Source: a virus (taxonomy: Duplodnaviria > Heunggongvirae > Uroviricota > Caudoviricetes). Taken from it: 64,000 nt of DNA. Numbering within the stretch: position 1 is the stretch's first letter; each line of letters begins with the position of its first letter. A program made the position numbers and the translations under genes. The DNA is taken from the IMG/VR virus record IMGVR_UViG_3300025087_000051; one strand, given 5' to 3'. Below are positions 7,249 to 63,933 of the stretch, in pieces. The notes beneath the pieces are model-generated. The model did not search any database and had not been told where the DNA came from. It saw only the letters and a program-made list of their open reading frames with translations.

Positions 7249-9014
7249 AAATATTAATATTAATAATCTCAATAATGCTGTCATTTGAATACTGCTCACG
7301 TGCAGATGTTTATATTGACCCATCAACAGGCACACCTACCCAAAATGGAACAATAGATGCTCCGTACGATTCGTGGAGTGATGTTGTATGGGCAGCAAAT
7401 ACTACTTATCGACAGAGGGAGGGGACAACCTATGTCAATACGATACGTGTAGATGTTCCAAACACCACAACATTTAACGGAACTATTACCTCATACAAGG
7501 CAATGCCAGAAGATTCCGGGAGACCTATTATTCATGGTTTAATTCCTGTCGAAGGTACGTGGACACAGAGAGCAGATGCAACTTACTATGCCACGCAAAC
7601 AACTACCTTTACGTTTAATAATGCAAACATGTGGGCTGATCAGGTAGAAATAAATCGCACTGCTGCTGCTACGACTACACCGAGCAATGCATCATGGAGT
7701 ACCGTTTCAAATGTGATTTATCTAAACGTAGGAACTTATACTTTTAGTATTGGTACATCAACTTTTGAAAGATCAAATAGCACGATCAATACCGGTATTT
7801 ATCTTTGGGACAGTAATTGCTCAGTTGTCGGCATGCAAGTGGAATGGACACCGTTTAGCGGTATAACGGGATTGTCTACTTCTGACAATATATATATTTA
7901 TGACTGTGTTGTTGAGCATTGTGGACAGAATCAATATACTTCTGGGCAAAACTGTATTCAGGGACTCGGGAATAATTGTTATATTGGAAGCTGCACTGCT
8001 AGGTATGCAGGAGATAATGGAATAGCACATGAAAATTTGGAAGGTACAGGGAATGAGAGGCCGACAAATACAGGTAATGTTGTTGAGAATTGCGAATCTT
8101 CCTTTAATTGGAATGTGGGGATTACTGTTAAAGGAGAGGGGCCTCTTTGTAATAGTGCCATTATACGGAATAACAATGTCCATGACAACGGATTGTTGTC
8201 GACTGATCTGAATCAGGACATTGACTATAATCGTTGTGGAATAAGATTACAGAACTTTTTCGGCACTGTGACTGGCAATACTATATATCGAAATGGAGGA
8301 GCAGGGATATATAGTCTCGGTTCAACAAATACTGCATACACAGATCCACAAATTACCACGATTGAATACAACGACGTTTACAATAATTATTTGGAGCAAT
8401 CAAGCGGGTATGGTAATAATCTGCCACCTACCGATTACCATCGCGGCGACAGGGGTGGGATTGCATTAATAACTCGTTATGTGACAGCAGATATAAACAG
8501 TTATTTTTCTTTGTCAAATAATACGGTACATGAAATGGGCACTGGTAGTGTTGCACTGTACTATTTTTCTTTATCAACATTCTCCGCTGTTAGTCCTGTA
8601 AAAGCTTATAACAATATTTTTATTTCGGAAGGTACTTATTCAGTACACAGAGATAAGTCTGATTTTTCAACAGGGAGTGATTTTGACAATAATGTATTAA
8701 ATAGTAATTCTCTTGTTTCGTCAGACAGAGGAATTGATGAAACATTTGCAACCTGGAATGCTAAAAGTTATGTTGGCACAGATTTACAATTTGATCCTGG
8801 ATGGGTAGGGTCTTCAACGTACAATCACAATCTTGTATCGAGCTCCCCAATACGGAATATCGGAATTGAAATTGGTACAAGAATTACCGATGTGCTTGGT
8901 AATCCTTTGTCTGGAATAAGGGATATAGGGGCTTTTGAATACCAGCCGGTTGGGAGTACCTTTTCTGGGGGAGCTTCAACCTTCAGCGGAAATACTTCAA
9001 CTTTTACAGATTGA
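7245..9014 (+). CDS. right-handed parallel beta-helix (pectate-lyase fold) protein, likely tailspike/depolymerase or adhesin
   Basis: signal peptide; repeated NxxxxNG / hNNhhhDNG-type turns (NNNVHDNGL, GNTIYRNGGAGIY) typical of beta-helix repeats. Confidence 0.6.
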   Translation: MKILILIISIMLSFEYCSRADVYIDPSTGTPTQNGTIDAPYDSWSDVVWAANTTYRQREGTTYVNTIRVDVPNTTTFNGTITSYKAMPEDSGRPIIHGLIPVEGTWTQRADATYYATQTTTFTFNNANMWADQVEINRTAAATTTPSNASWSTVSNVIYLNVGTYTFSIGTSTFERSNSTINTGIYLWDSNCSVVGMQVEWTPFSGITGLSTSDNIYIYDCVVEHCGQNQYTSGQNCIQGLGNNCYIGSCTARYAGDNGIAHENLEGTGNERPTNTGNVVENCESSFNWNVGITVKGEGPLCNSAIIRNNNVHDNGLLSTDLNQDIDYNRCGIRLQNFFGTVTGNTIYRNGGAGIYSLGSTNTAYTDPQITTIEYNDVYNNYLEQSSGYGNNLPPTDYHRGDRGGIALITRYVTADINSYFSLSNNTVHEMGTGSVALYYFSLSTFSAVSPVKAYNNIFISEGTYSVHRDKSDFSTGSDFDNNVLNSNSLVSSDRGIDETFATWNAKSYVGTDLQFDPGWVGSSTYNHNLVSSSPIRNIGIEIGTRITDVLGNPLSGIRDIGAFEYQPVGSTFSGGASTFSGNTSTFTD

Positions 9015-26039: not shown

Positions 26040-27005
26040 ATGACAAATCTTATTCCGATTGATAATCAGCAAAATAATCAAATAAAGCTATACAAGGAAA
26101 CTTATTTTGATCTGGTTGATAGATTTCTCGCTGTCTCAGACATTGTTCCAAATTCTAAAAAATTCTACAAAAAAATATTGAGATATTGGTATGAATGGTG
26201 TGAGGAAAATAACGTTACTACTCCGACAAGGGAACACATATTGATTTATAAAAATTCACTAAATATTAAATCTCGATATACTCAGGCAGCTTACTTATCT
26301 GTTGTTGGAGAATTCTATAATTGGCTCGATATTGAAGGTATTTATAAAGATATTACAAAAGGAATCAAGGTTAAACATAGACAGGTCGATCAGCATACCA
26401 GAAGTAAATTAACTCTTGAAGAAATTCACGCACTGTTAAACAGTATCGACACCAGCACTTTTACAGGAAGTAGAGATTTTGCTATGATAAATCTTATGGT
26501 GCGAACTGGATTAAGAATGATTGAATTGAACAGAGCAGATGTGAACGACTTTTTCTTTTTAAATGATAGAAGGGTTTTGTACGTACAAGGCAAGGGACGT
26601 ATCCAGAAAGACGAGTTTGTGATTATTAATGAAGAAACGTACAAACCTTTGGAAAATTATATAAATACGAGACAATTTTTATCAGTTACCAATAACAATC
26701 AACCTCTTTTCGTTTCTCATAGTATTCGAGGTTCTGTAAACGATCCAAACAAGACGAATCGGAGGCTAACCGTAAACGCTATCAGATATATTGTGTGGAC
26801 AAGGCTAAAGCAAGCCGGTATTAAGCGAAAAGACATTGTGGGGCATTCGCTTAGACATACAACGGCAACACTCGCTATAGATGCTGGCGCTACCATAGAA
26901 GAGGTTCAAGCACTAATGAGACATAAAGACCCTCGAACTACCATGATTTATATTAAAGAAAGAAACAGGTTTAAAAATGCGGCAGAAGATAAGATAAAAA
27001 TTTAA
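26040..27005 (+). CDS. int: tyrosine recombinase / phage integrase
   Basis: C-terminal catalytic box GHSLRHTTAT...LMRHKDPRTTMIYIKE (R, HxxR, Y nucleophile). Confidence 0.9.
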   Translation: MTNLIPIDNQQNNQIKLYKETYFDLVDRFLAVSDIVPNSKKFYKKILRYWYEWCEENNVTTPTREHILIYKNSLNIKSRYTQAAYLSVVGEFYNWLDIEGIYKDITKGIKVKHRQVDQHTRSKLTLEEIHALLNSIDTSTFTGSRDFAMINLMVRTGLRMIELNRADVNDFFFLNDRRVLYVQGKGRIQKDEFVIINEETYKPLENYINTRQFLSVTNNNQPLFVSHSIRGSVNDPNKTNRRLTVNAIRYIVWTRLKQAGIKRKDIVGHSLRHTTATLAIDAGATIEEVQALMRHKDPRTTMIYIKERNRFKNAAEDKIKI

Positions 27006-34711: not shown

Positions 34712-34936
34712 ATGTCAATATTTATCAGCGATCCACTCGGAGAATTAACAATATCCACCGGAGGAAACCTTACACACATAAGCCCAGACCTAGAAATAGA
34801 ATTTGTGGGTAAGGATAATAGTTTTTTCGTTTCTTTGACACAAGATGGAAGACTTAAAATAGTGAAATCAACCAGGAAAAATAGTATACAGACAAAATTA
34901 ATCAGTACCTTAGCAAATGAAATAATTGTCAGCTAA
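34712..34936 (+). CDS. hypothetical protein
   Basis: 74-aa ORF. Confidence 0.35.
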   Translation: MSIFISDPLGELTISTGGNLTHISPDLEIEFVGKDNSFFVSLTQDGRLKIVKSTRKNSIQTKLISTLANEIIVS

Positions 34937-35008
34937 TGAACAAAAAAACACAAAAAACACAACAGATAGTACGGTATAAAAAATCATAAAATTATTTTAA
35001 ATTAGTTG

Positions 35009-35037
35009 TTGACAAGATTGAAAAAGGTGTGTATATT
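35009..35037 (+). promoter_or_regulatory. consensus-like sigma70 promoter driving RHH-tnpB
   Basis: TTGACA-17nt-TATATT. Confidence 0.55.
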
Positions 35038-35045
35038 CGCTGTAT

Positions 35046-35171
35046 ATGAAACGTATCAATTGCCATTTAACAAATCTTCAAATCAAACAATTAAAAAAAC
35101 TATCAAAAGAAGTTGGGCTGTCGGTTGCTGAAATTATTCGCCGAGCAATAGATGAATATATAACAAAATGA
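35046..35171 (+). CDS. ribbon-helix-helix micro-protein translationally coupled to tnpB
   Basis: 41-aa MKRINCHLTNLQIKQLKKLSKEVGLSVAEIIRRAIDEYITK; stop TGA overlaps tnpB ATG (ATGA). Confidence 0.45.
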   Translation: MKRINCHLTNLQIKQLKKLSKEVGLSVAEIIRRAIDEYITK

Positions 35172-36292
35172 AAAAGACATTTCTTTATCGTGCGAAAATA
35201 AACAGACAGACAGAATCTAATTGCTGTCGATGGATTGAAATTTGTCGTGATGTTTATAACTCCGCATTAGGGCAAAGAATTAATACGTACAAGGAAGCCG
35301 GAAAATCTATAACCAAAAACAATCAAGTAACACAATTACCTTTAATTAAAAAAGATTTTCCAAGTATTAAGATAGTTAGCTCTCAAACACTTCAAGATGT
35401 GATTGAACGTCTCGATAAAGCCTATAAAGCATTTTTTCGTAGAGTAAAGTTTGGAGAAAAAGCCGGATTTCCCCGTTTTAAGAATCGAAACAGCTATAAT
35501 TCCTTCACCCTTAAACAGCATGGATATAAACTTGATGGTAGGTATTTATATATTAAAAACATTGGCAGGTTCAAACTCTTTCTTTCCAGACCGATTGAAG
35601 GAAACGTCAAAACCGTTACCATCAGAAAGATGCCTACAGGTAAATGGTATGTATCTTTTTCTTGTGATGATGTTTCTGCCAAGCAAGTCTCAATAACCGA
35701 TAAAATCATAGGAATAGACGTAGGAATTAAAAATTTCTGTGTTGACAGCGAAGGAACATGCGTTAAAAACCCTAAATTTTTATTTGATTCTGAAAAAGAA
35801 CTTAGACGTAAACAGAGAAAACTTTCCAGAAGAAAAAAGTGTTCTAGCCACTGGAACAAAGCAAAAATATTAGTTGCTAAAGTGCATGAAAAAATAACAA
35901 ATCAAAGAAAAGACTTTTTACATAAGATTACCAATAAATATATTAATAATTTTCAAACTATTTATATTGAAGATTTAAAGATTAAAAATATGGTTAAAAA
36001 TAGATATTTGAGCAAATCTATTTCAGACAGTAGTTGGGGTACTTTCTTTCGGTTTCTTTCTTATAAAGCTGAAAATGCTGGTAGGAAAGTAATTAAGGTG
36101 AACCCTGCCAATACTTCACAAAAATGTTCTACTTGCGGAGAAAAAGTCCAAAAATCTTTATCTGTTCGTATACATTCGTGTTCTTTTTGTGGCTTGAAAA
36201 TAGATAGAGATTTGAATGCTGCAATAAATATAAGTCAGGATGGGCAGTCCTGTCAGGCATTAACTAATGATATGTTAGAATTGGTAGCCTGA
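35168..36292 (+). CDS. tnpB: TnpB (second, divergent copy; ~40% identity to 9510-10670)
   Basis: IGIDVGI, YIEDLKIKNM, CSTCG...CSFCG, RDLNAAINI. Confidence 0.9.
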   Translation: MKKTFLYRAKINRQTESNCCRWIEICRDVYNSALGQRINTYKEAGKSITKNNQVTQLPLIKKDFPSIKIVSSQTLQDVIERLDKAYKAFFRRVKFGEKAGFPRFKNRNSYNSFTLKQHGYKLDGRYLYIKNIGRFKLFLSRPIEGNVKTVTIRKMPTGKWYVSFSCDDVSAKQVSITDKIIGIDVGIKNFCVDSEGTCVKNPKFLFDSEKELRRKQRKLSRRKKCSSHWNKAKILVAKVHEKITNQRKDFLHKITNKYINNFQTIYIEDLKIKNMVKNRYLSKSISDSSWGTFFRFLSYKAENAGRKVIKVNPANTSQKCSTCGEKVQKSLSVRIHSCSFCGLKIDRDLNAAINISQDGQSCQALTNDMLELVA

Positions 36293-36400
36293 GTATCTTT
36301 TGATTTCAACTACAAGGAATGTCAAATATCGTATATACGTAAAAGCCTTGCAAAATAAGGGAAAATCCACAAAATAATAATATGAAAACCAATACCGAAA
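36293..36400 (+). ncRNA. possible omegaRNA 3' portion / right end of TnpB element
   Basis: CAAGG-28nt-CCTTG hairpin just after stop; boundaries unknown. Confidence 0.3.
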
Positions 36401-37772: not shown

Positions 37773-38663
37773 ATGATTTGGATGTCTATGGTATGTTTTG
37801 TTGCATTTGTTATTTTTTTTATCATTTTAAAGAATTTGAATAAAGATACGAATGATAGCGATAAATTAATTTTAAAAATATTCGCAGGAGCGTTTGGCGG
37901 TATTGGTGGACTTTTGTTCTTTTTTAGTATTTTTTCAATAATTCCGGTTGGCAACGTTGGAATACAAGTTATATTCGGAAAGGCTTCCCAGAACATACTC
38001 GAAAATGGATTAAGAACTAAAAATCCGTTTACTAGTGTTCAAAAAATGAGCGTGAAGACTCAGGAACTGAAAGAAAGCGCACAAGTTCCATCAAAAGAAG
38101 GACTGATCATGGATGTGGATATTAGCCTATTGTATCGATTAAACCCCCAAACATCTTTCGAGGTATATACAAAAGTTGGAAAAGATTATCAATCAGTTAT
38201 TGTAGAACCTCAACTCCGTTCGGCAATTCGTGAGATTACATCATCCTACGAGGCGAAAGTATTATATTCATCGGAAAGAGACAAAATAAGCAATGAAATA
38301 TATTCCTTATTCAAGAAAATGACTGAACACAGAGGAATTATCACAGAGCAATTACTGCTAAGAGACATTGGGCTGCCGAAAGTTGTTTCTGATGCAATTG
38401 AACAAAAACTTGAAGCGGAACAAAGATCAGAACAAATGAAGTTTACCTTAATGAAAGAGACACAAGAAGCAGAAAGAAAAAGAATCGAAGCAAGGGGTGT
38501 ATCTGATTTCCAACACATAGTTAGTGAAGGAATTAATGACAATCTTTTGAAGTGGAAAGGAATCGAAGCCACGGAAGCATTAGCAAAGTCTCCAAATGCT
38601 AAAATCGTTGTAATAGGTGGTAGAGACGGTATGCCGCTTATTCTTAATGCAGAAACTAAATAG
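37773..38663 (+). CDS. SPFH/band-7 (stomatin/prohibitin/HflK-like) membrane protein
   Basis: N-terminal TM then band-7 core and coiled-coil EQKLEAEQRSEQMKF..QEAERKRIEARG; GGAGGGG RBS. Confidence 0.75.
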   Translation: MIWMSMVCFVAFVIFFIILKNLNKDTNDSDKLILKIFAGAFGGIGGLLFFFSIFSIIPVGNVGIQVIFGKASQNILENGLRTKNPFTSVQKMSVKTQELKESAQVPSKEGLIMDVDISLLYRLNPQTSFEVYTKVGKDYQSVIVEPQLRSAIREITSSYEAKVLYSSERDKISNEIYSLFKKMTEHRGIITEQLLLRDIGLPKVVSDAIEQKLEAEQRSEQMKFTLMKETQEAERKRIEARGVSDFQHIVSEGINDNLLKWKGIEATEALAKSPNAKIVVIGGRDGMPLILNAETK

Positions 38664-44586: not shown

Positions 44587-45216
44587 ATGAAATGTAAATA
44601 TAACGAAACAATATTAAAACCAAAAGTATTAGAATTATATAACAAAGGAATGTCACAGAGAGGAATAGGAGAAATTTTAAATATAACCAGAGGACATTTG
44701 GTAAGATGGTACAAAAAATGGGGAATACGATCAAAAAAAATTCTTGGTATTTATCGTAAAAATTATAAAAACGGTAAAAGTCTTTGCTGTGGTTATTATA
44801 GAATACGTAATCCAGATCATCAGAAAGGAATTATAACTTATAGATATGAACATGTTTTTATTGCAGAAAAAGTATTGGGAAAGCCTCTAATGCCTAAACA
44901 CGAAGTTCATCACGTAGATAACAATAGAGCGAATAATAAAAATAATAATTTAGTTATATGTGAAAGTAGAAATTATCATAGATTACTTCATGTAAGAACA
45001 AAAGCATTGAAAGAATCTGGCGATGCAAATAATATGAAATGTAAATATTGTAAGAAATGGGATACTCTAAAAAACTTGATACAGCAAGACAAAAAAAGAA
45101 TTAATTATTCACATGAACAGTGTACCACAAATTACAGAAAAGAATATTGGATTAAAACAAAAAATGCAATAAAATTCCATAGAATGAAAAGAGAGGATTG
45201 TAATGATCAGTATTAA
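44587..45216 (+). CDS. HTH + HNH endonuclease
   Basis: N-terminal MSQRGIGEILNITRGHL HTH; HEVHHVDNNRANNKNNNLVICESRNYHRLLH HNH. Confidence 0.7.
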   Translation: MKCKYNETILKPKVLELYNKGMSQRGIGEILNITRGHLVRWYKKWGIRSKKILGIYRKNYKNGKSLCCGYYRIRNPDHQKGIITYRYEHVFIAEKVLGKPLMPKHEVHHVDNNRANNKNNNLVICESRNYHRLLHVRTKALKESGDANNMKCKYCKKWDTLKNLIQQDKKRINYSHEQCTTNYRKEYWIKTKNAIKFHRMKREDCNDQY

Positions 45217-45400
45217 TTATGAATTTGGTGACGCAGATGTGTCTTGCAGTAATTGCGGTTTTTGTGAAAATATAAAAGGTTTTGGCGGCCATATTTCTTT
45301 TGATTTTATTGCTGATAAACTCAGAGGGTGTGATTGGAAAACAACAAAAGAAGATGGCGAGTGGAAACATTTTTGTCCTGATTGTAAAAAAAAATTGTAA
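45203..45400 (+). CDS. zinc-ribbon protein
   Basis: CSNCGFC ... CPDCKKK. Confidence 0.35.
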   Translation: MISINYEFGDADVSCSNCGFCENIKGFGGHISFDFIADKLRGCDWKTTKEDGEWKHFCPDCKKKL

Positions 45401-47082: not shown

Positions 47083-47289
47083 ATGACAACAGACAATATA
47101 AATCATCCGCCACATTACAAATCAAACGGTATGGAAGCTATTGACGTGATAGAGGCGTTTGGTCTTGGATTTCATCTTGGTAATGCCATGAAATACATTC
47201 TTAGAGCTGGCAGAAAAACAGAAGACGATACGGAAGATACAAAAAAGGCTATTTGGTATTTAAATCGTTATTTAGGAGAAAAACAGTGA
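47083..47289 (+). CDS. DUF3310-like phage protein
   Basis: NHPPHYKSNGMEAIDVIEA pattern recalled from phage DUF3310 family (from memory). Confidence 0.45.
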   Translation: MTTDNINHPPHYKSNGMEAIDVIEAFGLGFHLGNAMKYILRAGRKTEDDTEDTKKAIWYLNRYLGEKQ

Positions 47290-48824
47290 AAATAATTAAA
47301 CCGTCAATTGAAATTTTAGACGTATTAGACCAAACCACTATTTTGAAAAGATTGGAATTAGTTGGAAGGACTTGCTATAAATCAGAAGATAAAATAACCG
47401 ATAATTCTTGTGTTGAGTTTATCAGAAAGATTATTAAGTCTGGACACCATTCCATAATTGAACATTACGATATTTCGGTTAGAGTAATATGTGATAGGGG
47501 CGTTACCCACGAAATAGTTAGACATAGAATAGCCAGCTATGCTCAGGAATCTACACGATATTGTATATCGGGAGACATGGGTTTATCTTTTAAAAATCCT
47601 CATCAAAAATTTACTGTGAGCCAACTTTATAACAATCGAATTAACTCAAAAAATAATTCGTGGAAAAGAATGTTTATTAAACAACTTAACGAAGACACCG
47701 GATATATCACTTTTGACAAAATAAAAAATATTGTTTATACAGGATTTAAAGAGGTAGTAAAAATTACTACTTCTCTTGGGTATTCTCTTATTGTTACGCC
47801 AGATCATAGAATAAAAACCAGTTATGGATATGCAAGGGCAGACAGTTTAGCGGGAAGGGAGATAGCTGTAAATGGAATTGGAATTTGTACAACAAAACAT
47901 GCCTACCAAGATAAAGATTGGCTTAAATATCACTATATTGTGTTAAACAAAACAGCAGTACAAATTGCCAATGATTTAAAAGCTAGTACCTCTGCCGTTA
48001 AGAAATGGATAAGATTGCATGGCTTTGCGAATACTAAACCAAAAAGCTATTGGAATAAGGGAAGAAAACCCTGGAATAAAGGACTTACCGAAAGCAATGA
48101 TATAAGAATCAAAAAACAAGGAGATGCCCTACGAAAATTCGGATATAGAAAAGGAGAAAAAAAAAGACAGAAAACAATATCTATAAGAACTTATCATAAA
48201 ACCGTAAAAGATAAATGTGTTTTGTGTGGAGGTTGTTTATCCCTTCATGTTCACCACAAAAACAGCAACAGGATGGATAATTGTACTGACAATTTGATAA
48301 CCTTATGCCCCTCTTGTCATGGGGGTGTCCATAATAAAAATCTATCATTTGTATATTTTGATAAAGTAGTATCCATAGAAAAATTGCCTAATACTATTCC
48401 TGTTTATGATATTGAGATGGGAGGGCAATATCATAATTTTGTAGCAAACGGTGTGGTTGTGCATAACTGTAATTATGCAAGCGGTAAATTTGGAAATGAA
48501 ATCACTGTTATTGAACCTTGTTTTTGGAATATAGATAACGATGAAAAGATGTTAGTATGGGAATTAGTCATAAAAGCCTCAGAAGCCGCATATCTCAAAC
48601 TTATAGAACTTGGAGCAACTCCACAAGAAGCGAGGAGTGTGCTTCCAAATTCTTTGAAAACAGAAATAATTGTTAAATTCAATCTTCGAGAATGGAGACA
48701 TTTCTTAACTTTGAGAACTTCTAGGGCTGCTCATCCACAAATGAGAGAAGTGACAAACATGATACTAACAGAGTTTAAATCAAAATTACCAATTATTTTT
48801 GAGGATATATCCAATGAAAATTAA
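47253..48824 (+). CDS. thyX: flavin-dependent thymidylate synthase ThyX interrupted by an HNH intein
   Basis: N-extein IVRHRIASYAQESTRY (RHRx7S...SxRY ThyX motif); C-extein ARSVLPNS...NLREWRHFLTLRTS; exteins total ~221 aa. Confidence 0.8.
   Translation: MVFKSLFRRKTVKIIKPSIEILDVLDQTTILKRLELVGRTCYKSEDKITDNSCVEFIRKIIKSGHHSIIEHYDISVRVICDRGVTHEIVRHRIASYAQESTRYCISGDMGLSFKNPHQKFTVSQLYNNRINSKNNSWKRMFIKQLNEDTGYITFDKIKNIVYTGFKEVVKITTSLGYSLIVTPDHRIKTSYGYARADSLAGREIAVNGIGICTTKHAYQDKDWLKYHYIVLNKTAVQIANDLKASTSAVKKWIRLHGFANTKPKSYWNKGRKPWNKGLTESNDIRIKKQGDALRKFGYRKGEKKRQKTISIRTYHKTVKDKCVLCGGCLSLHVHHKNSNRMDNCTDNLITLCPSCHGGVHNKNLSFVYFDKVVSIEKLPNTIPVYDIEMGGQYHNFVANGVVVHNCNYASGKFGNEITVIEPCFWNIDNDEKMLVWELVIKASEAAYLKLIELGATPQEARSVLPNSLKTEIIVKFNLREWRHFLTLRTSRAAHPQMREVTNMILTEFKSKLPIIFEDISNEN
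47562..48467 (+). other. intein (302 aa) with HNH homing-endonuclease domain inside thyX
   Basis: starts CISGDMG (block A), HVHHKNSNRMDNCTDNLITLCPSCHGGVHN HNH, ends VYDIEMGGQYHNFVANGVVVHN followed by +1 Cys. Confidence 0.8.
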
Positions 48825-51069: not shown

Positions 51070-51693
51070 ATGATAGACCTTGAAAAATTTTGTAGAAAAA
51101 GTCATTATACAGGAACATTAAATGAACCGTTTAGCGATAATGACTATACTTATGCTTCTGATGGTTCTATAATAATCAGGGTTGATAAAATTCAAGAAAT
51201 GACAGAGAAAGATACTCATTCTAATAAAGCAAAAGAACTGTTTGAAAAAAATAAAATTAATGGAAATGAAATATGGACTGATCTGCCTAAATTTGAAGTA
51301 ATAGAAAAAAATTGTACCGAATGTGTTGGCACTGGCAAAATTATTATATGCAAAGAATGTAATAGCACTGGAAGTTTAGAATTTAGTAGCAATTATAACG
51401 ATTATGATGTTGAGTGTAAGTCTTGTTTTGGTAAAGATATTAAAGATGAAAAATGCGAAGATTGTGACGGTACTGGCAAATATAAAGAATATTCAAATCC
51501 TGTTATAGAAGTTCCTATAAGAAAAGATGGAAATTTAGAACAAATCGAAATAATAATAAATGGTAAATATCTGGAAATGATACAAGACTTGCCGAACATC
51601 AAAATAGCATTGCAAGGTGAAAAAGAACTTATAAAATTAAAATTTGATGGCGGTATCGGATTGCCGATGCCGATAGAACGAGGAAAGCCTTAA
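51070..51693 (+). CDS. DnaJ-type zinc-finger (CxxCxGxG x4) protein
   Basis: CTECVGTG, CKECNSTG, CKSCFGKD, CEDCDGTG. Confidence 0.55.
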   Translation: MIDLEKFCRKSHYTGTLNEPFSDNDYTYASDGSIIIRVDKIQEMTEKDTHSNKAKELFEKNKINGNEIWTDLPKFEVIEKNCTECVGTGKIIICKECNSTGSLEFSSNYNDYDVECKSCFGKDIKDEKCEDCDGTGKYKEYSNPVIEVPIRKDGNLEQIEIIINGKYLEMIQDLPNIKIALQGEKELIKLKFDGGIGLPMPIERGKP

Positions 51694-52685
51694 TGCTTCC
51701 AAACAAAAATAACTTTTGTGGTGGTAATTTCTTCGATTGGATCGAAGTAATGCTCATTGATAAATGTAATGGGACTTGTTCGTGGTGTATAGAAAACGAA
51801 GGATATAAACCGAAAAAAGTAGCAACGTGGCAGAAATTACTCGAAAAATTAATACAATCAAATAAAAAAAATATCATATTTCTTGGCGGAGAACCAACAC
51901 TTTATAAAGACCTTCGGCTCTTGATTACAAATTTATATTTAGTAAATAAAAATACATACATTACTACAAATGGTAGTTTGTTATGTGCAGAATATATAGA
52001 AAATAATCTGCCTGGATTGACTGGAATTAACATATCTATTCATCATTATCATTTAGGTATGAACAAACAAATAACTGGCATAAAATTAGAAGAATATCTG
52101 TTTCGTAGTGCAATTAGCAAAGCAAAAGAATTAAATATAAAAGTACGATTAAATTGTAATGTCATTAAAAAATATATAGACAACGAAAATGAAGTTAATA
52201 AGTATATAGAATTTGCCAAAAATATTGGCGCAAATAATGTGCGATTCGCAGAATTAAAACACGATGATAAAAATTTTATAGATATGGCTGAAATATTAAA
52301 TTATAAATACGGATTAAACGATGATCCTTTTTCCAATGGATGTATCAGAGATGTTGTAATAAATAACATGCCAATAAATTTTAGACAAATGTGTGGTCTA
52401 CAAACAACGAAAAGAATTGTTCCAGAAAATCCTGAGCAAATTAGTAAAAAAGTATTATATTATGATGGTAACTTTTACAATGGTTGGCAAGCCGAAAAAG
52501 AGGAAGATATGAAAAAAACAAAAAAAGAAACAAAAGCGGTTAAAGATTTTACTGAAACTGACAAATTATTAAGAGAATTGAAAAATGGGAAAATTACATT
52601 AAAAGAAGCAAAAATAAAGATGAATGTCATTCTTGAAGAAACAGAGAAAATTGCTGTGGCTGCTTCCGGTGGATGTAATTACTAA
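51693..52685 (+). CDS. radical SAM enzyme
   Basis: CNGTCSWC (CX3CX2C) and FLGGEPTL (GGEP) motifs; 330 aa with C-terminal extension. Confidence 0.7.
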   Translation: MLPNKNNFCGGNFFDWIEVMLIDKCNGTCSWCIENEGYKPKKVATWQKLLEKLIQSNKKNIIFLGGEPTLYKDLRLLITNLYLVNKNTYITTNGSLLCAEYIENNLPGLTGINISIHHYHLGMNKQITGIKLEEYLFRSAISKAKELNIKVRLNCNVIKKYIDNENEVNKYIEFAKNIGANNVRFAELKHDDKNFIDMAEILNYKYGLNDDPFSNGCIRDVVINNMPINFRQMCGLQTTKRIVPENPEQISKKVLYYDGNFYNGWQAEKEEDMKKTKKETKAVKDFTETDKLLRELKNGKITLKEAKIKMNVILEETEKIAVAASGGCNY

Positions 52686-56930: not shown

Positions 56931-58868
56931 ATGAATTACGATAATTTTCTTACTCATAAAAAACAGCAAGGATCTAATCATGGATTTGATCCTACATTTG
57001 TTCCAGATTATTTGTTTGATTTTCAAAAAAGTTTGGTTGAATGGGCTGTAAATAAGGGTCGTAGTGCTATATTTTCTGATTGCGGCACAGGAAAAACTAT
57101 TATGGAGCTTGTGTGGGCATACAACATAGTAAGAAAAACAAACAAAAATGTATTGATATTATCACCGCTGGCCGTCTCTTGGCAAACCGCAAAAGAAGCG
57201 GAAAAATTTGGAATTGAATGTAAGGTATCAAGGGATGGTAAAATTAACAGCAAAATAACAATTACCAATTATGAACAATTACATAAGTTTGAACCGTCTG
57301 ATTTTGTCGGTATTGTATGTGATGAGAGTGGAATATTAAAATCGTTTAAAGGTGCATTAAGAAAAGAAATAACAATATTCATGCGTAAAATTGAATATAG
57401 ATTATTAGCTACGGCAACGCCAGCTCCGAACGATTATATTGAATTGGGAACTTCGTCTGAAGCCTTGGGATATCTAGGTGCAATGGATATGTTAAATAAA
57501 TTTTTCAAAAACGATCAACACAATAGCAAAGTGGGAAGATATAGAGGACAAGAAGTTAAATGGAGATTGAAAGGTCATGCAGAATTACCTTTTTGGAGAT
57601 GGATATGTTCTTGGGCTAAAGCAATGAGAAAACCATCTGATTTAGGTTTTGACGATAATGGATTTATATTGCCAGAATTAATAATTAATCAAACCGTTGT
57701 AAAATCTAATAGTCTTCCTAAGGGTAAATTATTTTCTATGCCAGCGATAACACTACAAGAACAAAGAGAAGAAAGAAGAAGAACTATAATGGAAAGATGT
57801 GAGATGGTCGCCAGCAAGGTCAATACTGGTAAACAAGCATTGGTTTGGTGTCATTTAAACGACGAAGGAGACTTGTTAGAAGCACTTATTCCTAATTCAA
57901 TACAAGTAAAAGGGTCTGATTCTGTTGAATGGAAAGAAGCAGCGGCTGAATGGTTCGTTGGAAATAAATGTATTTGCAATGATAATATGTTTCGTGCTAA
58001 ACTTTTAGCATGGAAAAGAGAAAAACAAATCTTGAATACCATCGCCGATACTATCAAGAACATCGAGAGGAACGATTGCGTCAATCCATCGAATACCAGC
58101 GAGCACATAAAGTTGAACGAAAATCTTATCTATCAGAATATTACAAACACAACAGGGGGAAATGGGTGCGGACACAAAAACAAAAGGATGAAAGAAATAG
58201 AAGACGACGAGAGCGATATGCAAATGACGAAAAATTTCGTCTCGCTAAAATTGAAGAATCAAAAGAAACAAGAAGAAAAAACCCAGACACTCGGCTCAAA
58301 TATTGTCTTAAAAAATATGGTGTGTCCATCGAAGAATATCGAAAACTTGAATCAAAAGGATGCGCAATCTGCGGAAGAAAAGAAAACGGAGATATTCGAG
58401 GACACCGATTCCACATCGATCACTCCCACGATACTGGAAAATTCAGAGGGGTACTGTGTACAGGATGCAATCAAGGACTCGGAAAGTTTGGTGACGACCC
58501 TAAACGGCTCGAAAATGCCGCCATGTATCTGCGGGCATAAGACAGGACGTCGCATCCTCATAAGCAAGCCTGTCATGTTTGGGTATGGCTTAAATTTCCA
58601 ATGCTGTAATTATATGGTTTTATTCCCTTCCCATAGTTACGAACAATATTATCAAGTAATCCGCCGGTGTTGGCGTTTCGGACAAAAAAATCCAGTAACA
58701 GTAGATATTATAACAACGGAAGGGGAGTCAAGAATTATAAACAATTTACAAAGAAAATCTAAACAAGCTGATGAAATGTTTGAAAGATTAATTAGCGAAA
58801 TGAATCATGTGTTAAATATAAATCGAATGGAAGAATATTCACAAAAAATAATACTTCCTAATTTCTAA
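56931..58868 (+). CDS. SNF2-family helicase carrying an in-frame 555-nt insertion that encodes an HNH endonuclease in another frame
   Basis: motif I SDCGTGKT, II CDESG, III LLATATPAPND, V RILISKPVMFGYGLNF, VI QVIRRCWRFGQ; middle 185 codons low-complexity. Confidence 0.7.
   Translation: MNYDNFLTHKKQQGSNHGFDPTFVPDYLFDFQKSLVEWAVNKGRSAIFSDCGTGKTIMELVWAYNIVRKTNKNVLILSPLAVSWQTAKEAEKFGIECKVSRDGKINSKITITNYEQLHKFEPSDFVGIVCDESGILKSFKGALRKEITIFMRKIEYRLLATATPAPNDYIELGTSSEALGYLGAMDMLNKFFKNDQHNSKVGRYRGQEVKWRLKGHAELPFWRWICSWAKAMRKPSDLGFDDNGFILPELIINQTVVKSNSLPKGKLFSMPAITLQEQREERRRTIMERCEMVASKVNTGKQALVWCHLNDEGDLLEALIPNSIQVKGSDSVEWKEAAAEWFVGNKCICNDNMFRAKLLAWKREKQILNTIADTIKNIERNDCVNPSNTSEHIKLNENLIYQNITNTTGGNGCGHKNKRMKEIEDDESDMQMTKNFVSLKLKNQKKQEEKTQTLGSNIVLKNMVCPSKNIENLNQKDAQSAEEKKTEIFEDTDSTSITPTILENSEGYCVQDAIKDSESLVTTLNGSKMPPCICGHKTGRRILISKPVMFGYGLNFQCCNYMVLFPSHSYEQYYQVIRRCWRFGQKNPVTVDIITTEGESRIINNLQRKSKQADEMFERLISEMNHVLNINRMEEYSQKIILPNF
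57978..58532 (+). mobile_element. inserted segment carrying HNH gene, bounded by 9-bp direct repeat TGTATTTGC / TGTATCTGC
   Basis: 555 nt (3 x 185) purine-rich, GC-richer than flanks; removal restores ...GNKCIC-GHKTGRRILIS... SNF2 motif IV-V spacing. Confidence 0.6.
58010..58540 (+). CDS. HNH homing-type endonuclease
   Basis: CAICGRKENGDIRGHRFHIDHSHDTGKFRGVLCTGCNQGLGKF. Confidence 0.75.
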   Translation: MEKRKTNLEYHRRYYQEHREERLRQSIEYQRAHKVERKSYLSEYYKHNRGKWVRTQKQKDERNRRRRERYANDEKFRLAKIEESKETRRKNPDTRLKYCLKKYGVSIEEYRKLESKGCAICGRKENGDIRGHRFHIDHSHDTGKFRGVLCTGCNQGLGKFGDDPKRLENAAMYLRA

Positions 58869-58889
58869 ACAATAGAGGAGGTCAGGATC

Positions 58890-59903
58890 GTGACAGTTAA
58901 AGATCAGGTAATAACAAGTAATTATGCAATATACAATGGAGATGCTGTAGAAGTATTAAAAACACTACAAAGCAATTCTATTCACTTCTCTGTATACTCT
59001 CCTCCGTTTGCTACTGGCGGTGGCGGGCTTTATACTTATTCAAGCCACGAAAGAGACCTTTCTAATTGCGATAGTTACGAACAATTTTTTGAACATTACG
59101 CTTTTGTCGTAGAAGAAATAGCAAGATTAACATTACCTGGAAGATGTTCTGTCGTGCATTGTATGGATGTGCCGAAAAGTAATTCCGGTAATGATCTATT
59201 GAGGGATTTTCCAGGAGATATAATCAGATTACACGAAAAATATGGATTTGGATATGCGGCAAGACACTGTATTTGGAAAGAACCATTAGGGGTAAGATTG
59301 AGAACTATGCAAAAAAATTTAGCGCACAAAACATTAGTAGAAGATTCTATTGCATGTGGAGTGGCATCTGCTGACTACTTGTTAGTTTTTACGAAAAAAG
59401 GCAAGAATCAAATACCCATATCTCACCCAACCGGATTAAGTAATTATGCTGGAGAAAAGCCAATACCTTCCAACATATTACAATACAAGGGATATACTGG
59501 TAAACAGACAGAAAATTCATACTCGCATTGGATGTGGCGACAATACGCTTCTTCTATGTGGGACGATATAAGACTTGAAAGAACATTGCCATATAAAGAA
59601 GCAAGAGACAGCGAAGACGAAAAACACGTACATCCATTACAATTAGATGTTATTGAAAGATGCGTTGTTTTAAGGTCTAATATAGACGAAGTCGTGTTGA
59701 CACCATTTATGGGAGTTGGAAGCGAATGTTATGGTGCTATTATTAATGGCAGAAAAGCCATAGGAATCGAATTGAAACCATCTTATTACAGACAAGCCGT
59801 TAAAAATATGGAATTAGCTAAAAACGAAAAAACATTACAGAAAAAACTATTCAACGAAAACAATACCTTACTATCATTGATGAGTGAGGAAAAATCGGAA
59901 TAA
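58890..59903 (+). CDS. beta-class N6-adenine/N4-cytosine DNA methyltransferase
   Basis: motif IV SPPF (FSVYSPPFATGG) N-terminal, motif I FMGVGSE C-terminal; GAGGAGG RBS. Confidence 0.8.
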   Translation: MTVKDQVITSNYAIYNGDAVEVLKTLQSNSIHFSVYSPPFATGGGGLYTYSSHERDLSNCDSYEQFFEHYAFVVEEIARLTLPGRCSVVHCMDVPKSNSGNDLLRDFPGDIIRLHEKYGFGYAARHCIWKEPLGVRLRTMQKNLAHKTLVEDSIACGVASADYLLVFTKKGKNQIPISHPTGLSNYAGEKPIPSNILQYKGYTGKQTENSYSHWMWRQYASSMWDDIRLERTLPYKEARDSEDEKHVHPLQLDVIERCVVLRSNIDEVVLTPFMGVGSECYGAIINGRKAIGIELKPSYYRQAVKNMELAKNEKTLQKKLFNENNTLLSLMSEEKSE

Positions 59904-59905
59904 TA

Positions 59906-62611
59906 ATGGAAATCTCGAACAAAATCCCATTTTCTAATCCTAAATTTAAAAAAGGATTAACACCGCTACAGCACAAAACCGTCACGGACGTGCTATCAAG
60001 CAGAAAAACAATAACGATGATTAATGCTCCCACCGGATTCGGGAAGACTCCGACAGCTATGACCCTTGCCCACCATATAAACTACCCGAACCAATCTCTA
60101 TATCTTTGTAGTTCTAAAATTTTACAAGATCAATTGGCTGGGGATTTTACAGAAGCGTATCAATTAAAAGGGCGGGGAAATTATCCGTGCACACTTCTAC
60201 CCACCTATAATGCAGACCGATGCTTCCAACAATGCGATGAATATAAGTGCGGTGAAATTTCATGCGCTTATGAAGATGCGAAAAAAGAAGCCTTATCATC
60301 AACTTTTACCATTCTCAACATGCACTATTACGAGACCGAAACGAATTTTGTCGGTAGATTTTCAAAGCGTAAAACCGTAATAATTGACGAGGCAGATGTA
60401 TTAGAAGATATTTTGATAGATTTTATCGCACTAGACGTCCATCCGAAAACATTGGAAAAATTCAAGCTGGATCAGCCCAAATATGTGACTAAGTTAGATT
60501 CATGGAAGGAATGGGCGGATAAAACATTAAAAATATTAGAAGAAAAAGTTAAAAAGCTAAGAGCCGCCGAAGACCACTTGGATAGAGAATCAAAATTAGA
60601 ACTAAGTAAATTGTTGAGAATGTGTCTGAAATTAAATATGCTAAAAAACGATATAACGGAAGAGTGGATATTCGACCATGCCGAAAAATTTCGCTTTCAA
60701 CCTCTCTGGCTAGACACAAAACTTACCCAACAATATTTACTCAAACATGCGGAAAGATTCGTTATGATGTCTGCGACCATGCTCCCGAAAGTTATAGCGT
60801 GTAAATTATTGGGATTAGATATTAACGATGTGGATTATCACGAGATAGATTCACCTATACCCGTAGCGAATCGTCCCATTGTTTATAAGCCAATTAAAAA
60901 GCTAAAATACGGTGAATCAGAAGAAGATGTTTATAATGAAATTAAAAGATTGATAGAAGGGTACAAAGGAATTAAAGGGATTATTCATGCTGTGAGCTAT
61001 ACCCGTGCAAAGGCAATAGCAGGACTGGACAAGCGTTGCATCACTCATAATACCTACGATAAAAACGAAAAAATAAAACAATTCATAGACTCAAAAGATG
61101 GGATATTGGTAAGCCCATCGTGTGATCGTGGACTTGACCTGCACGGCGATCTAGCAAGATTCTGTATAATTCCAAAAGTTCCGTTCCCGAACACAACGGA
61201 CAAGGTGGTCTCCAAGCGTTTGTACAGCTCTCCCTTTGGTAGGGTATGGTACAGGGCTGTAACGGCGCAAACCATTGTTCAGATGGCGGGGCGTACTACT
61301 CGATGTTTTAGCACAGACACAGAAATCTTAACGATACATGGATGGAAAAAATACAACGAAGTAAATATGCACGATAAAACTTATTGTATTGATCAGAAAT
61401 CTTTTAACAATAAAACTAAACGTCCAGTTATGGAGGGTTCTTCGATATTAGTAGAAGGAGAAATAGAGGATGTCTATACATCAGATAAAGAAGAAAAAGT
61501 TATTAATATTAAAAATCAAAACATTGATGCTTTAGTTACTCAAGACCACGACATGATTGTTCAAATGAGAAAACAGAAAACTTATAGGGGGAAGTATAAA
61601 AAACCTTATGGAGTTTATGATTGGAAATACTGTCATCGTACAAATAGTCATGGATTAGAAAAAATAAAAGCATCTAAATTACCAGACAGATTTAAAATAC
61701 CACTAGCAGGAAAAATTATACGCAAAAACAAATCTCGTGCTAAAAAAGAATGGTTCTGGCTGATAGGTTTCATAATAGGGGATGGACATATTCATAAAAA
61801 CAAAAACGTCGTAACAATACATCAATCGGAAACCAACATAGACTTAATAGAAAAAATCAGAAAAGTTCTTGGTATACTTAAAATAGAATATTCAGAATAC
61901 AGACGACAAGTAAAAGGAACAAAAATAAATTTAAACGATAAGGAGTATTCAAGAAAAGAAGATATGATAAATTTTCAAATAACGGGTAAGTCTTCTTCGA
62001 TGATTAGGGATATGTTTAATAATGGCAAAAGAAGAAGGTATTCAAAAACAGTAACATACGTACAAAGAACTCACTTTTCTTTTAGTAAAAAAATAGGGGG
62101 AAAGCATAAAATAGATGGGTGGAAAGAAGTGGAAAAAATCATACCAAGATGGTGTCTGGAGAAGGGGTCGAAATCCCAACTTATTAAATTAATTCATGGT
62201 TTGGTTGACAGCGACGGAAGCTGGAAAAAAACTAATGGTAAATATAATAAAAACGTTGGAGGTTTTTACAACAAAAATAAAATCATAATAGATGCTTTTC
62301 AGGAGTTGTGCGTATTGACAGGATATAGAAGTTTGATTCGTAACAGAAGGAATCAATACGAAGTTTCCTTTTGTTGTCCCTCCATGATTGACTGTACGAA
62401 AAATAATGATGTAAAAGACGGAGGGATGTCTAAGGTGTGGTGTGTTAAAACAAATCATGGAAATGTTATAATGAGGAGAAATGGTAAACCTTTTTTGTGT
62501 GGAAACAGTGCCAGCGACTTTTCCACTGTTCATATACTGGACGCTGCTTTTGATTCGGTCGTAGAATTTGTCCCGAAATGGTTTCGAGATGCAATCAAGG
62601 TTGAATTTTAG
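59906..62611 (+). CDS. DinG/Rad3(XPD)-family FeS helicase interrupted by a LAGLIDADG intein in motif VI
   Basis: motif I NAPTGFGKT, four-Cys FeS cluster, DEAD box, motif VI QMAGRTTR | intein | SASDFSTVHILDAAF. Confidence 0.8.
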   Translation: MEISNKIPFSNPKFKKGLTPLQHKTVTDVLSSRKTITMINAPTGFGKTPTAMTLAHHINYPNQSLYLCSSKILQDQLAGDFTEAYQLKGRGNYPCTLLPTYNADRCFQQCDEYKCGEISCAYEDAKKEALSSTFTILNMHYYETETNFVGRFSKRKTVIIDEADVLEDILIDFIALDVHPKTLEKFKLDQPKYVTKLDSWKEWADKTLKILEEKVKKLRAAEDHLDRESKLELSKLLRMCLKLNMLKNDITEEWIFDHAEKFRFQPLWLDTKLTQQYLLKHAERFVMMSATMLPKVIACKLLGLDINDVDYHEIDSPIPVANRPIVYKPIKKLKYGESEEDVYNEIKRLIEGYKGIKGIIHAVSYTRAKAIAGLDKRCITHNTYDKNEKIKQFIDSKDGILVSPSCDRGLDLHGDLARFCIIPKVPFPNTTDKVVSKRLYSSPFGRVWYRAVTAQTIVQMAGRTTRCFSTDTEILTIHGWKKYNEVNMHDKTYCIDQKSFNNKTKRPVMEGSSILVEGEIEDVYTSDKEEKVINIKNQNIDALVTQDHDMIVQMRKQKTYRGKYKKPYGVYDWKYCHRTNSHGLEKIKASKLPDRFKIPLAGKIIRKNKSRAKKEWFWLIGFIIGDGHIHKNKNVVTIHQSETNIDLIEKIRKVLGILKIEYSEYRRQVKGTKINLNDKEYSRKEDMINFQITGKSSSMIRDMFNNGKRRRYSKTVTYVQRTHFSFSKKIGGKHKIDGWKEVEKIIPRWCLEKGSKSQLIKLIHGLVDSDGSWKKTNGKYNKNVGGFYNKNKIIIDAFQELCVLTGYRSLIRNRRNQYEVSFCCPSMIDCTKNNDVKDGGMSKVWCVKTNHGNVIMRRNGKPFLCGNSASDFSTVHILDAAFDSVVEFVPKWFRDAIKVEF
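61304..62506 (+). other. intein (401 aa) with LAGLIDADG homing endonuclease
   Basis: begins CFSTDTEILT; LIGFIIGDGHI and LVDSDGSW motifs; ends NGKPFLCGN then +1 Ser. Confidence 0.75.
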
Positions 62612-63063: not shown

Positions 63064-63933
63064 ATGGGATATTTACATATAGAAAATTTATATAAAAACA
63101 AAGATATATTACTTTTTAAAGAATGTTATGCTTTGGAAAAAATACATGGATGTTCCGCCCATATTCAATGGAAAGATAAATTAATTACTTATTTTCCTGG
63201 CGGTATCAAACTGGAATCTTTTGTCAAAATTTTTAATAATGATTTTTTAAAAAGTAAATTTTCAGAATTAGCTATTAACGATATAATCATTTACGGAGAA
63301 GTTTATGGTGGTGCTTGCCAAAAAATGAGCGATGTTTATGGTAAAAATTTAAAATTTATAGCTTTTGATGTAAAAATAGAAGATGTTTGGCTGTGTGTTC
63401 CCGATGCTTTCGATATTTGTTCTCAATTTAATATAGAATTTGTTCATTACGAAAAAGTTAAAACTGAAATTGAAATATTAGATAAATTGGCAAATGATTA
63501 TTCCATACAATCTATTCGTAACGGCATAAAAGAACCGAAAAAAAGAGAAGGTATTGTGCTGAGACCTCTTGTTGAACTTATCAAAAACAACGGAAGCCGT
63601 ATAATTTCAAAACACAAAAATGATACATTTAAAGAAAGAGAACATTTACCGAAAATTAGTGAAGAATCTCTTAAAATTTACGAAGAAGCGCAATCCGCCG
63701 TTAATGAATTTGTTACAGAGATGAGACTTTCTCATATTTTGGGGAAATTAACTGAATGTAATATCGAAGATGCGGGAATGATAATAAAATTTATGATCGA
63801 AGATGTTTTCAGAGAAGCAAAGGGAGAAATTATAGAAAATACTGAAATTAAAAAATTAATAGGCAAAAAAACTGCAATAATGTTTAAGCAAAGAATAGTT
63901 GATAAGTTAAAAACAGGATCAAAGAATATTTAG
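63064..63933 (+). CDS. Rnl2-like ATP-dependent RNA/DNA ligase (nucleotidyltransferase)
   Basis: motif I EKIHGCSA (KxHG as in T4 Rnl2 KIHGTN); GEVYGG; EGIVLRP. Confidence 0.55.
   Translation: MGYLHIENLYKNKDILLFKECYALEKIHGCSAHIQWKDKLITYFPGGIKLESFVKIFNNDFLKSKFSELAINDIIIYGEVYGGACQKMSDVYGKNLKFIAFDVKIEDVWLCVPDAFDICSQFNIEFVHYEKVKTEIEILDKLANDYSIQSIRNGIKEPKKREGIVLRPLVELIKNNGSRIISKHKNDTFKEREHLPKISEESLKIYEEAQSAVNEFVTEMRLSHILGKLTECNIEDAGMIIKFMIEDVFREAKGEIIENTEIKKLIGKKTAIMFKQRIVDKLKTGSKNI

Follow-up and report, generated by a model that had tools for sequence, protein, structure and literature searches.

The gene for the thymidylate synthase ThyX in an uncultured, AT-rich phage, known from IMG/VR virus record IMGVR_UViG_3300025087_000051 (Duplodnaviria; Heunggongvirae; Uroviricota; Caudoviricetes), is very probably interrupted by a class-1 intein that carries an HNH endonuclease. 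The window, by which is meant the whole stretch of 64,000 nucleotides (nt) that was analyzed, has this gene on its plus strand, and a reading of the letters alone, the original prediction, had proposed that ThyX is split there by an HNH-containing intein next to the catalytic RHR...SxRY motif. Profile searches speak for that proposal, with Pfam Thy1 (8.3e-44, 150.1 bits against a threshold of 24.8) falling in two stretches around Intein_splicing (1e-15), TIGR intein models matching and the class-1 residues in place. The strings quoted in its favor, RHRIASYAQESTRY/CISGDMG, HVHHKNSN...CPSCHGGVHN, VYDIEMGGQYHNFVANGVVVHN/CNYASGKF and ARSVLPNS...WRHFLTLR, are all found in the plus-strand frame 47253..48824 (here and below a slash marks an insertion or splice junction). 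The features are listed with amino acids (aa) of the intein numbered from its Cys1, and with pLDDT standing for the predicted local distance difference test score of an AlphaFold2 model.

47286..48824, plus strand: thyX precursor coding sequence, 512 aa plus stop; Pfam Thy1, TIGR02170, PHROG 85
47286..47561, plus strand: N-extein, 92 aa, ending in the ThyX motif RHRIASYAQESTRY (47520-47561)
47562..48467, plus strand: intein, 302 aa (CISGDMG...GVVVHN), in frame, class 1
47562..47873, plus strand: N-terminal splicing lobe, intein aa 1-104; pLDDT 90-98
47898..48026, plus strand: predicted three-helix DNA-binding module resembling a helix-turn-helix (HTH), intein aa ~113-155, at the start of the endonuclease insert
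48027..48209, plus strand: basic linker with YWNKGRKPWNKG repeat, intein aa ~156-216; predicted to be mostly disordered, pLDDT 48-79
48210..48335, plus strand: HNH nuclease core with two CxxC zinc knuckles, intein aa 217-258
48345..48467, plus strand: C-terminal splicing lobe, intein aa 262-302; pLDDT 96-97
48468..48824, plus strand: C-extein, 118 aa (48468-48821) plus stop; second Thy1 stretch

Besides Thy1, the open reading frame (ORF) is matched by TIGR02170 thyX of NCBIfam (1.3e-35, 122.8 bits against a cut-off of 87.9) and by thymidylate synthase in PHROGs (2.9e-46). Its first possible start is an in-frame TTG at 47253, from which the original prediction had counted the gene. The ORF stands, and the start is to be moved: the GTG at 47286 is the likelier one, since AGGAGA at 47274-47279 is 7 nt upstream of it, since it overlaps, as GTGA, the stop of the upstream DUF3310 gene, and since the same start is found both in the 99%-identical P0001, which is the window's phage sampled elsewhere (contig L008; intein 99.7% and extein 99.5% identical), and in the homologue without intein on groundwater contig L007. 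Counted from GTG, the exteins sum to 210 aa rather than to the 221 aa that follow from TTG and had been announced; either total is within normal ThyX length, as had been said, with intein-less homologues being 205-225 aa long. The C-extein begins with the +1 Cys (CNYASGKF...) and contains ARSVLPNS, WRHFLTLR and AHPQMRE. For annotation, ‘500-aa ThyX’ proteins are to be read as precursors.

The case for an insertion is carried by relatives whose site is empty. The conceptually spliced 210-aa query retrieves insert-free ThyX proteins that are 205-225 aa long and up to 83% identical to it, and the 23 closest extein homologues (71-83% identity; 207-225 aa) run straight through ...ESTRY-CNY.... R-Y-C is present at the junction in 119 of 120 intein-less homologues, which makes the +1 Cys native to this ThyX clade. 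One intein-less ThyX, P0121, is encoded on L007 in the same gene order as in the window (a 68-aa DUF3310 gene, thyX and a 436-aa AAA_23 ATPase gene), this contig being collinear with the window from ~33.5 to 51.5 kb (~18 kb) at 72-82% nucleotide identity in blastn. Its thyX encodes ...ESTRY-CNYGSGKFGNE..., ungapped, and the empty-site DNA reads ...CAAGAAAGTACAAGATAT/TGTAATTATGGCTCAGG.... When L007 and L005 are compared with the window by blastn the alignment ends at 47565 and restarts at 48466-48468, the 4-nt ambiguity of the boundary being the TGTA common to the Cys1 and +1 Cys codons. Judged by these alignments, 47562-48467 is a clean in-frame insertion of 906 nt relative to syntenic intein-less relatives.

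Could the segment instead be a native, lineage-specific insertion domain of ThyX, such as a regulatory domain that binds DNA, rather than a mobile intein? Its HTH and zinc-finger elements could bind nucleic acid, but the idea is effectively refuted by the empty-site comparison and deserves next to no credence: the segment is precisely absent from syntenic relatives and from the 23 closest homologues, so that homologous ThyX proteins do not have it natively, it has a HINT fold with intein termini, and if left in place it would split the loop that binds deoxyuridine monophosphate (dUMP). Its distribution on the extein tree is a further point against a native domain. Apart from P0001, the nearest intein-bearing extein is 64% identical to that of the window, and all exteins at least 71% identical are intein-free; the presence of the intein is thus sporadic on the extein tree, as expected of a mobile element.

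Intein block homology is evident at both ends of the segment. Block A Cys1 is at 47562 and block B, T79-P-D-H82, at 47796-47807, while the C-terminal lobe has the block F D283 and the block G H301-N302, followed by Cys as the +1 residue, in keeping with the canonical intein C-terminus and +1 Cys that had been called from the letters. The NCBIfam models for intein N- and C-termini both score above their cut-offs (TIGR01443 with 28.6 bits against 15.6). Allelic inteins occupy the same insertion point, designated site c, in at least 115 metagenomic ThyX clusters (90% identity); C1, T79, D283, H301 and N302 are kept in 115 of 115 of them and H82 in 114. Alignment with 70 homologues likewise has C1, T79, H82 (of TPDH), D283, G297, H301, N302 and the +1 Cys as invariant or near-invariant. 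The AlphaFold2 model of the intein, built on that alignment, has a mean pLDDT of 85.9, with values above 90 in both splicing lobes, and in it the N- and C-terminal lobes form a HINT fold. Its best matches on Foldseek comparison with the PDB are the Ssp DnaB, Npu DnaB and Mtu RecA mini-inteins, with target-normalized template modeling (TM) scores of 0.80-0.88. On PDB sequence search DnaB inteins are matched by both lobes, and the N-terminal lobe aligns to the Ssp and Npu DnaB inteins.

Retention of these residues also bears on whether the element might be a remnant that is dead for splicing, with thyX a pseudogene and the phage reliant on thymidylate synthesis by its host. Splicing of the window's intein is admittedly deduced from sequence, and canonical residues do not keep some inteins from splicing poorly in a foreign context. 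Nevertheless, 512 codons are without a stop or frameshift, every catalytic residue of both intein and ThyX is kept, the extein is still 75-83% identical to intact ThyX proteins, and in a second sample (L008) the intein-containing gene is 99.97% identical over 6.4 kb. A dead remnant is accordingly very hard to credit.

The motif RHRIASYAQESTRY aligns to R78-H79-R80...S88-G89-R90-Y91 of T. maritima ThyX (PDB chains) and also to M. tuberculosis ThyX, and over its full length the spliced protein can be aligned with solved ThyX structures, RHR, S, R and Y all falling in their places. By this alignment the insertion is between the Tyr of S-x-R-Y and the native Cys, corresponding to Y91 and S92 of the T. 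maritima enzyme, in the dUMP-binding loop. That loop being broken for as long as the intein is in it, an active ThyX should require splicing. Junction DNA is constrained by the ThyX motif, the consensus of occupied and empty alleles together being cAaGAaagtACncGaTAt/TGTAAtTAt, and DNA encoding a conserved motif is the usual choice of homing site. Because it is placed in an essential conserved motif, the intein is shielded from imprecise deletion and its target sequence is kept conserved.

In the series of events envisaged, the 512-aa precursor would be translated as a single chain, Cys1 would make an N-S acyl shift, the N-extein would be passed to the +1 Cys by trans-thioesterification, and Asn302 would cyclize with the aid of His301, freeing the intein. 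An S-N shift would then seal the 210-aa ThyX, with the dUMP-binding loop being intact only from that point. The freed 35-kDa intein would act as a homing endonuclease: on co-infection with a related phage bearing an empty thyX allele it would nick or cut near ...GAAAGTACAAGATAT/TGTAATTAT..., and recombinational repair would copy the intein into that allele.

The endonuclease insert occupies intein aa ~105-260, between the splicing lobes. In its linker W171 and N172 of the WNKG repeat are invariant, and K173 and G174 nearly so, in the alignment of 70 homologues. The HNH core has the residues C219, C222, H229-V-H231-H232, N244, C249, C252, H253 and H257, and in the model it includes a beta-beta-alpha element (strands 229-232 and 245-248, helix 250-257). 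PHROG HNH families match at 4.7e-11 to 1e-7 and the NCBIfam IscB HNH region at 1.2e-5, and HNH domains PF01844 or PF13392 are precomputed for many homologues. These matches, the invariant or nearly invariant pattern CxxC...HH...N...CxxCH...H and the modeled fold uphold the placing of an HNH motif within the intein. A search of the middle section with Pfam at E <= 5 for named HTH or NUMOD domains yielded sub-threshold HNH matches only. The intein has fewer candidate sites for a promoter or terminator of its own than have shuffled sequences, and nothing indicates separate expression of the nuclease.

Of the 115 inteins of the site-c family 103 have kept the nine HNH and zinc residues undamaged, and five members have internal deletions by which part or all of the endonuclease module is gone. 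The smallest of these deletion variants, P0103, is a 159-aa mini-intein without aa ~113-258, and natural site-c mini-inteins span 159-183 aa. Such a mixture is as expected if selection for homing maintains the nuclease, which otherwise decays, and we infer from it a homing-cycle pattern in which the HNH would be kept while the intein spreads and would decay when no longer relevant.

Whether the nuclease in the window is still an active homing enzyme is a separate matter, and here we would say that it probably is, with appreciably less assurance than attaches to the intein itself. Several observations pull the other way. The Pfam HNH matches of the window's copy are below threshold (PF01844 with 14.7-16.9 bits against a gathering score of 21.4, PF13392 with 13.7-15.5 against 24.8). 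Comparison of the window with L007 gives no sign of a co-conversion tract beside the junction, and there is no step in GC content at the intein (0.328, with the exteins at 0.328-0.330 and the window at ~0.33), from which it follows that the invasion was not recent. Leaving P0001 aside, the nearest intein is only 53% identical, which again makes for an old invasion, and the nuclease may since have lost activity or target without visible damage to its motifs; the donor would belong to an unsampled lineage. That the protein splices, that ThyX is active and that DNA is cut are, moreover, all read from the letters of the DNA.

That same 53%, a composition fully adapted to the host genome and the lack of a co-conversion signature, together with the decayed mini versions at site c in other lineages, are what can be said for a splicing-competent intein whose HNH no longer homes, a fixed passenger late in the homing cycle that is held in place only because its imprecise loss would destroy ThyX. 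We consider this unlikely, though not lightly dismissed. None of the nine HNH and zinc residues has been lost in the window, as is the case in the great majority of the family, intein-free target alleles are plentiful among the closest relatives, and deletion is quick where constraint is lost, so that the keeping of a dispensable module of 150 aa argues for ongoing selection. Active homing stays the favored reading for the nuclease.

A free-standing HTH_23 plus HNH_3 endonuclease gene is present 2.3 kb upstream, at 44587-45216 (+). It is without a counterpart in L007, where the region runs from 7255 to 7435 versus 44602 to 45388 in the window, and is one of two further insertions that the window has relative to L007, the other being a TnpB gene. 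Its product and the intein HNH both match PHROG 7545; a closer kinship of the two was considered and rejected, with BLASTP finding no significant similarity. Seven proteins that are 480-650 aa long and otherwise unrelated (P0277, P0296, P0303, P0305, P0335, P0353 and P0371) contain 6-11 tandem stretches matched by the HTH module of the intein (aa ~113-163), which suggests a repeat-forming DNA-binding module that Pfam does not name for the window's copy.

How widely are such inteins distributed? An exhaustive HMMER search of 1.84 billion representatives yielded 39 proteins with E <= 1e-30; with the limit eased to 1e-10 the number is 446, and with 1e-3 it is 2959. Of the 150 that score best, the majority could be placed at a junction in the ThyX motif, at one of three insertion points, the rest having been only partly inspected.

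Site a: after RHRxxS[YF], with +1 Ser or Cys; Gizmo, Colt, Methanomassiliicoccales virus vir335, P0107 and P0110
Site b: before the catalytic Ser, ...QE/S.RY; jumbo phage LR756500 and several IMG/VR contigs
Site c: after S.RY; the window intein

With the full-length query the site-c junction, ES[TS]RY/C...VHN/CNY, is found in more than 100 metagenomic ThyX clusters. P0001 excepted, their inteins are 41-53% identical to that of the window and their exteins 30-64%. On a neighbor-joining tree nine site a/b inteins, which are 27-32% identical to the window intein, form a clade apart from the 115 at site c. A scan of 185,579 species genomes had, among the best 80 of its 95 relatives, a single close site-c relative, L009, a contig of an Anaerolineales metagenome-assembled genome (MAG). 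In IMG/VR there are eleven close loci, their contigs being 12-254 kb long, and among GenBank phages the search for close relatives gave only short matches of 68-77% to thyX of gut phages.

Six ThyX-like proteins of ~630 aa (P0108, P0109, P0115, P0117, P0119 and P0120) have RHR replaced (EFRTHVGLSHLAESTRY) and retain the site-c intein, in which the HTH module is duplicated. Further afield, SNF2-type helicases of Bryobacterales, Solibacter and Myxococcota MAGs (L010, L011 and L012) have an HNH-bearing intein directly after a Walker-A-like GMGC motif. These inteins are ~24% identical to that of the window, and as far as their sequences go they show that the HNH-intein architecture exists in cellular helicases.

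Natural DnaB inteins carry other nuclease types. The Npu and Ssp DnaB mini-inteins (PDB 4O1R, 1MI8, 6FRG), which are so close in fold to the splicing lobes, are from another host protein, and the crystallized forms are minimized and without endonuclease. Within ThyX, the Ter intein of Trichodesmium was reportedly shown to splice by Liu and Yang in 2004 (J Bacteriol 186:6316; cited in PMC4649490). That intein, from Trichodesmium erythraeum, splices efficiently and has been put to use both as a mini and as a split intein (PMC3620165). It too resides in a flavin-dependent thymidylate synthase, though in a cellular (cyanobacterial) gene rather than a phage gene as in the window. No Trichodesmium locus is among the best 80 relatives of the species-genome scan, and the Ter ThyX intein is therefore not a close relative.

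Phage counterparts have been described, with Kelley et al. 2016 (PMC5050341) reporting two thymidylate-synthase inteins in cluster C1 mycobacteriophages, and a 2025 preprint (10.1101/2025.01.02.630785), in which an actinophage thymidylate synthase is included, treating an in-frame HNH as a rare, non-canonical intein architecture. The ThyX inteins of the cluster C1 (Bixzunavirus) phages, exemplified by Gizmo gp97 and Colt gp83, share with the window's the architecture, the host protein and the block G, NG.VVHN. Their insertion, however, is 7 residues upstream, RHRSGF/C...HN/SYNEESGRY with +1 Ser versus STRY/C...HN/CNY, so that the window intein, its insertion site not being identical, is a different allele from these published mycobacteriophage ones. 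The Gizmo and Colt inteins are ~29% identical to it, tblastn having aligned only residues 121-302 of the window intein, and they belong to the separate site a/b clade. Their hosts are high-GC actinophages, whereas the window phage is AT-rich, uncultured and unrelated to them. The likeness to reported phage ThyX inteins thus holds as to kind, with the mycobacteriophage insertion point being a different one within the same motif.

Jumbo phage LR756500 and vir335 have in ThyX an HNH-bearing class-1 intein, 27-31% identical to the window's, within the same 14-residue motif, in the former at site b with the catalytic Ser as +1 residue (...AQE/STRY) and in the latter at site a (RHRLASY/SQQSQRY), both insertion points differing from that in the window. 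It is the metagenomic site-c inteins (P0002-P0106 and IMG/VR L089-L098) that have the window's junction and its order of HINT-N, HTH, WNKG linker, zinc-HNH and HINT-C, although some differ in being mini-inteins or in residing in ThyX-like proteins without RHR. A name or description for the proteins with these inteins was found in none of the sources searched. Compared with the mycobacteriophage, LR756500 and vir335 inteins, that of the window is arguably a new allele of a known kind.

A more venturesome thought is that splicing is conditional, with a reversible disulfide between Cys1 and the +1 Cys, or DNA sensing by the HTH-HNH part, gating ThyX maturation and so switching the supply of thymidine monophosphate (dTMP). 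Cys is present at both splice junctions throughout the site-c family, and inteins that are disulfide-trapped or stimulated by single-stranded DNA are known in archaeal PolII and RadA. Yet the sequence fits plain constitutive splicing just as well, inteins most commonly pair Cys1 with a +1 Cys, and the +1 Cys is native to intein-less ThyX; we regard the proposal as improbable. Hardly better are the prospects of the larger notion that the site-c intein is a conditional dTMP switch and, with sites a and b, part of a large, undescribed, mostly viral radiation specialized on the 14-residue ThyX motif. Were it true, the radiation would offer uncharacterized HNH homing specificities and natural mini-inteins.

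The window has further features in which inserted or rearranged sequence figures. A DinG/YoaA-like helicase (DEAD plus Helicase_C_2) encoded at 59906-62611 (+) appears to have motif VI broken by an element of ~400 aa (aa ~467-867), with the junctions ...QMAGRTTR/CFSTDTEILT...WFWLIGFIIGDGHI...LIHGLVDSDGS...KPFLCGN/SASDFSTVHILD and Gly as the penultimate residue. The element matches LAGLIDADG_3 (1.9e-10) and Hom_end, and the PHROG helicase profile ends at aa 466, which is position 542 of 579. Splicing-domain models give no match to it; the PDB sequence search gave only a weak LAGLIDADG match, the IMG/VR scan no relative, and an empty-site relative was not found. It is probably a second intein, of LAGLIDADG type. 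Immediately upstream, 56931-58868 (+) encodes a 645-aa N-terminal half of an SNF2/ResIII-type helicase, and 58890-59903 (+) a separate 337-aa N6_N4 DNA methylase whose C-terminus matches the C-terminal part of the same PHROG helicase family (phrog_16). This region, 56931-59903, may be a split or rearranged helicase-methylase.

An IS200/IS605-type TnpB gene (OrfB_IS605, Cas12f1-like TNB, HTH_OrfB_IS605) is at 35168-36292 (+). L007 has ~137 nt where the window has ~1.6 kb (34714 to 36326), and the TnpB region is therefore an insertion in the window's phage. A tyrosine integrase at 26040-27005 (+) (Phage_integrase, 3e-24) suggests a temperate or integrative element. Genes for SPFH/Band_7, radical SAM and RNA ligase proteins are also in the window, the coordinates listed with the integrase being 37773-38663, 51693-52685 and 63064-63933.

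As for what it all amounts to, the element in the window belongs to a known kind of selfish element, of which it is an ordinary example, and would not surprise a specialist; the window and its relatives are a clean textbook pair of occupied and empty sites for an intein in an uncultured phage, the value of which is modest. The active-site loop of ThyX (RHR...S.RY) is an intein hot spot, with at least three insertion points taken by related HTH-HNH inteins on almost entirely viral contigs, and the case points to a sizeable, mostly viral intein radiation on this motif of which the literature searched gives no description. Its site-c family could be mined for splicing tools or for HNH homing enzymes.

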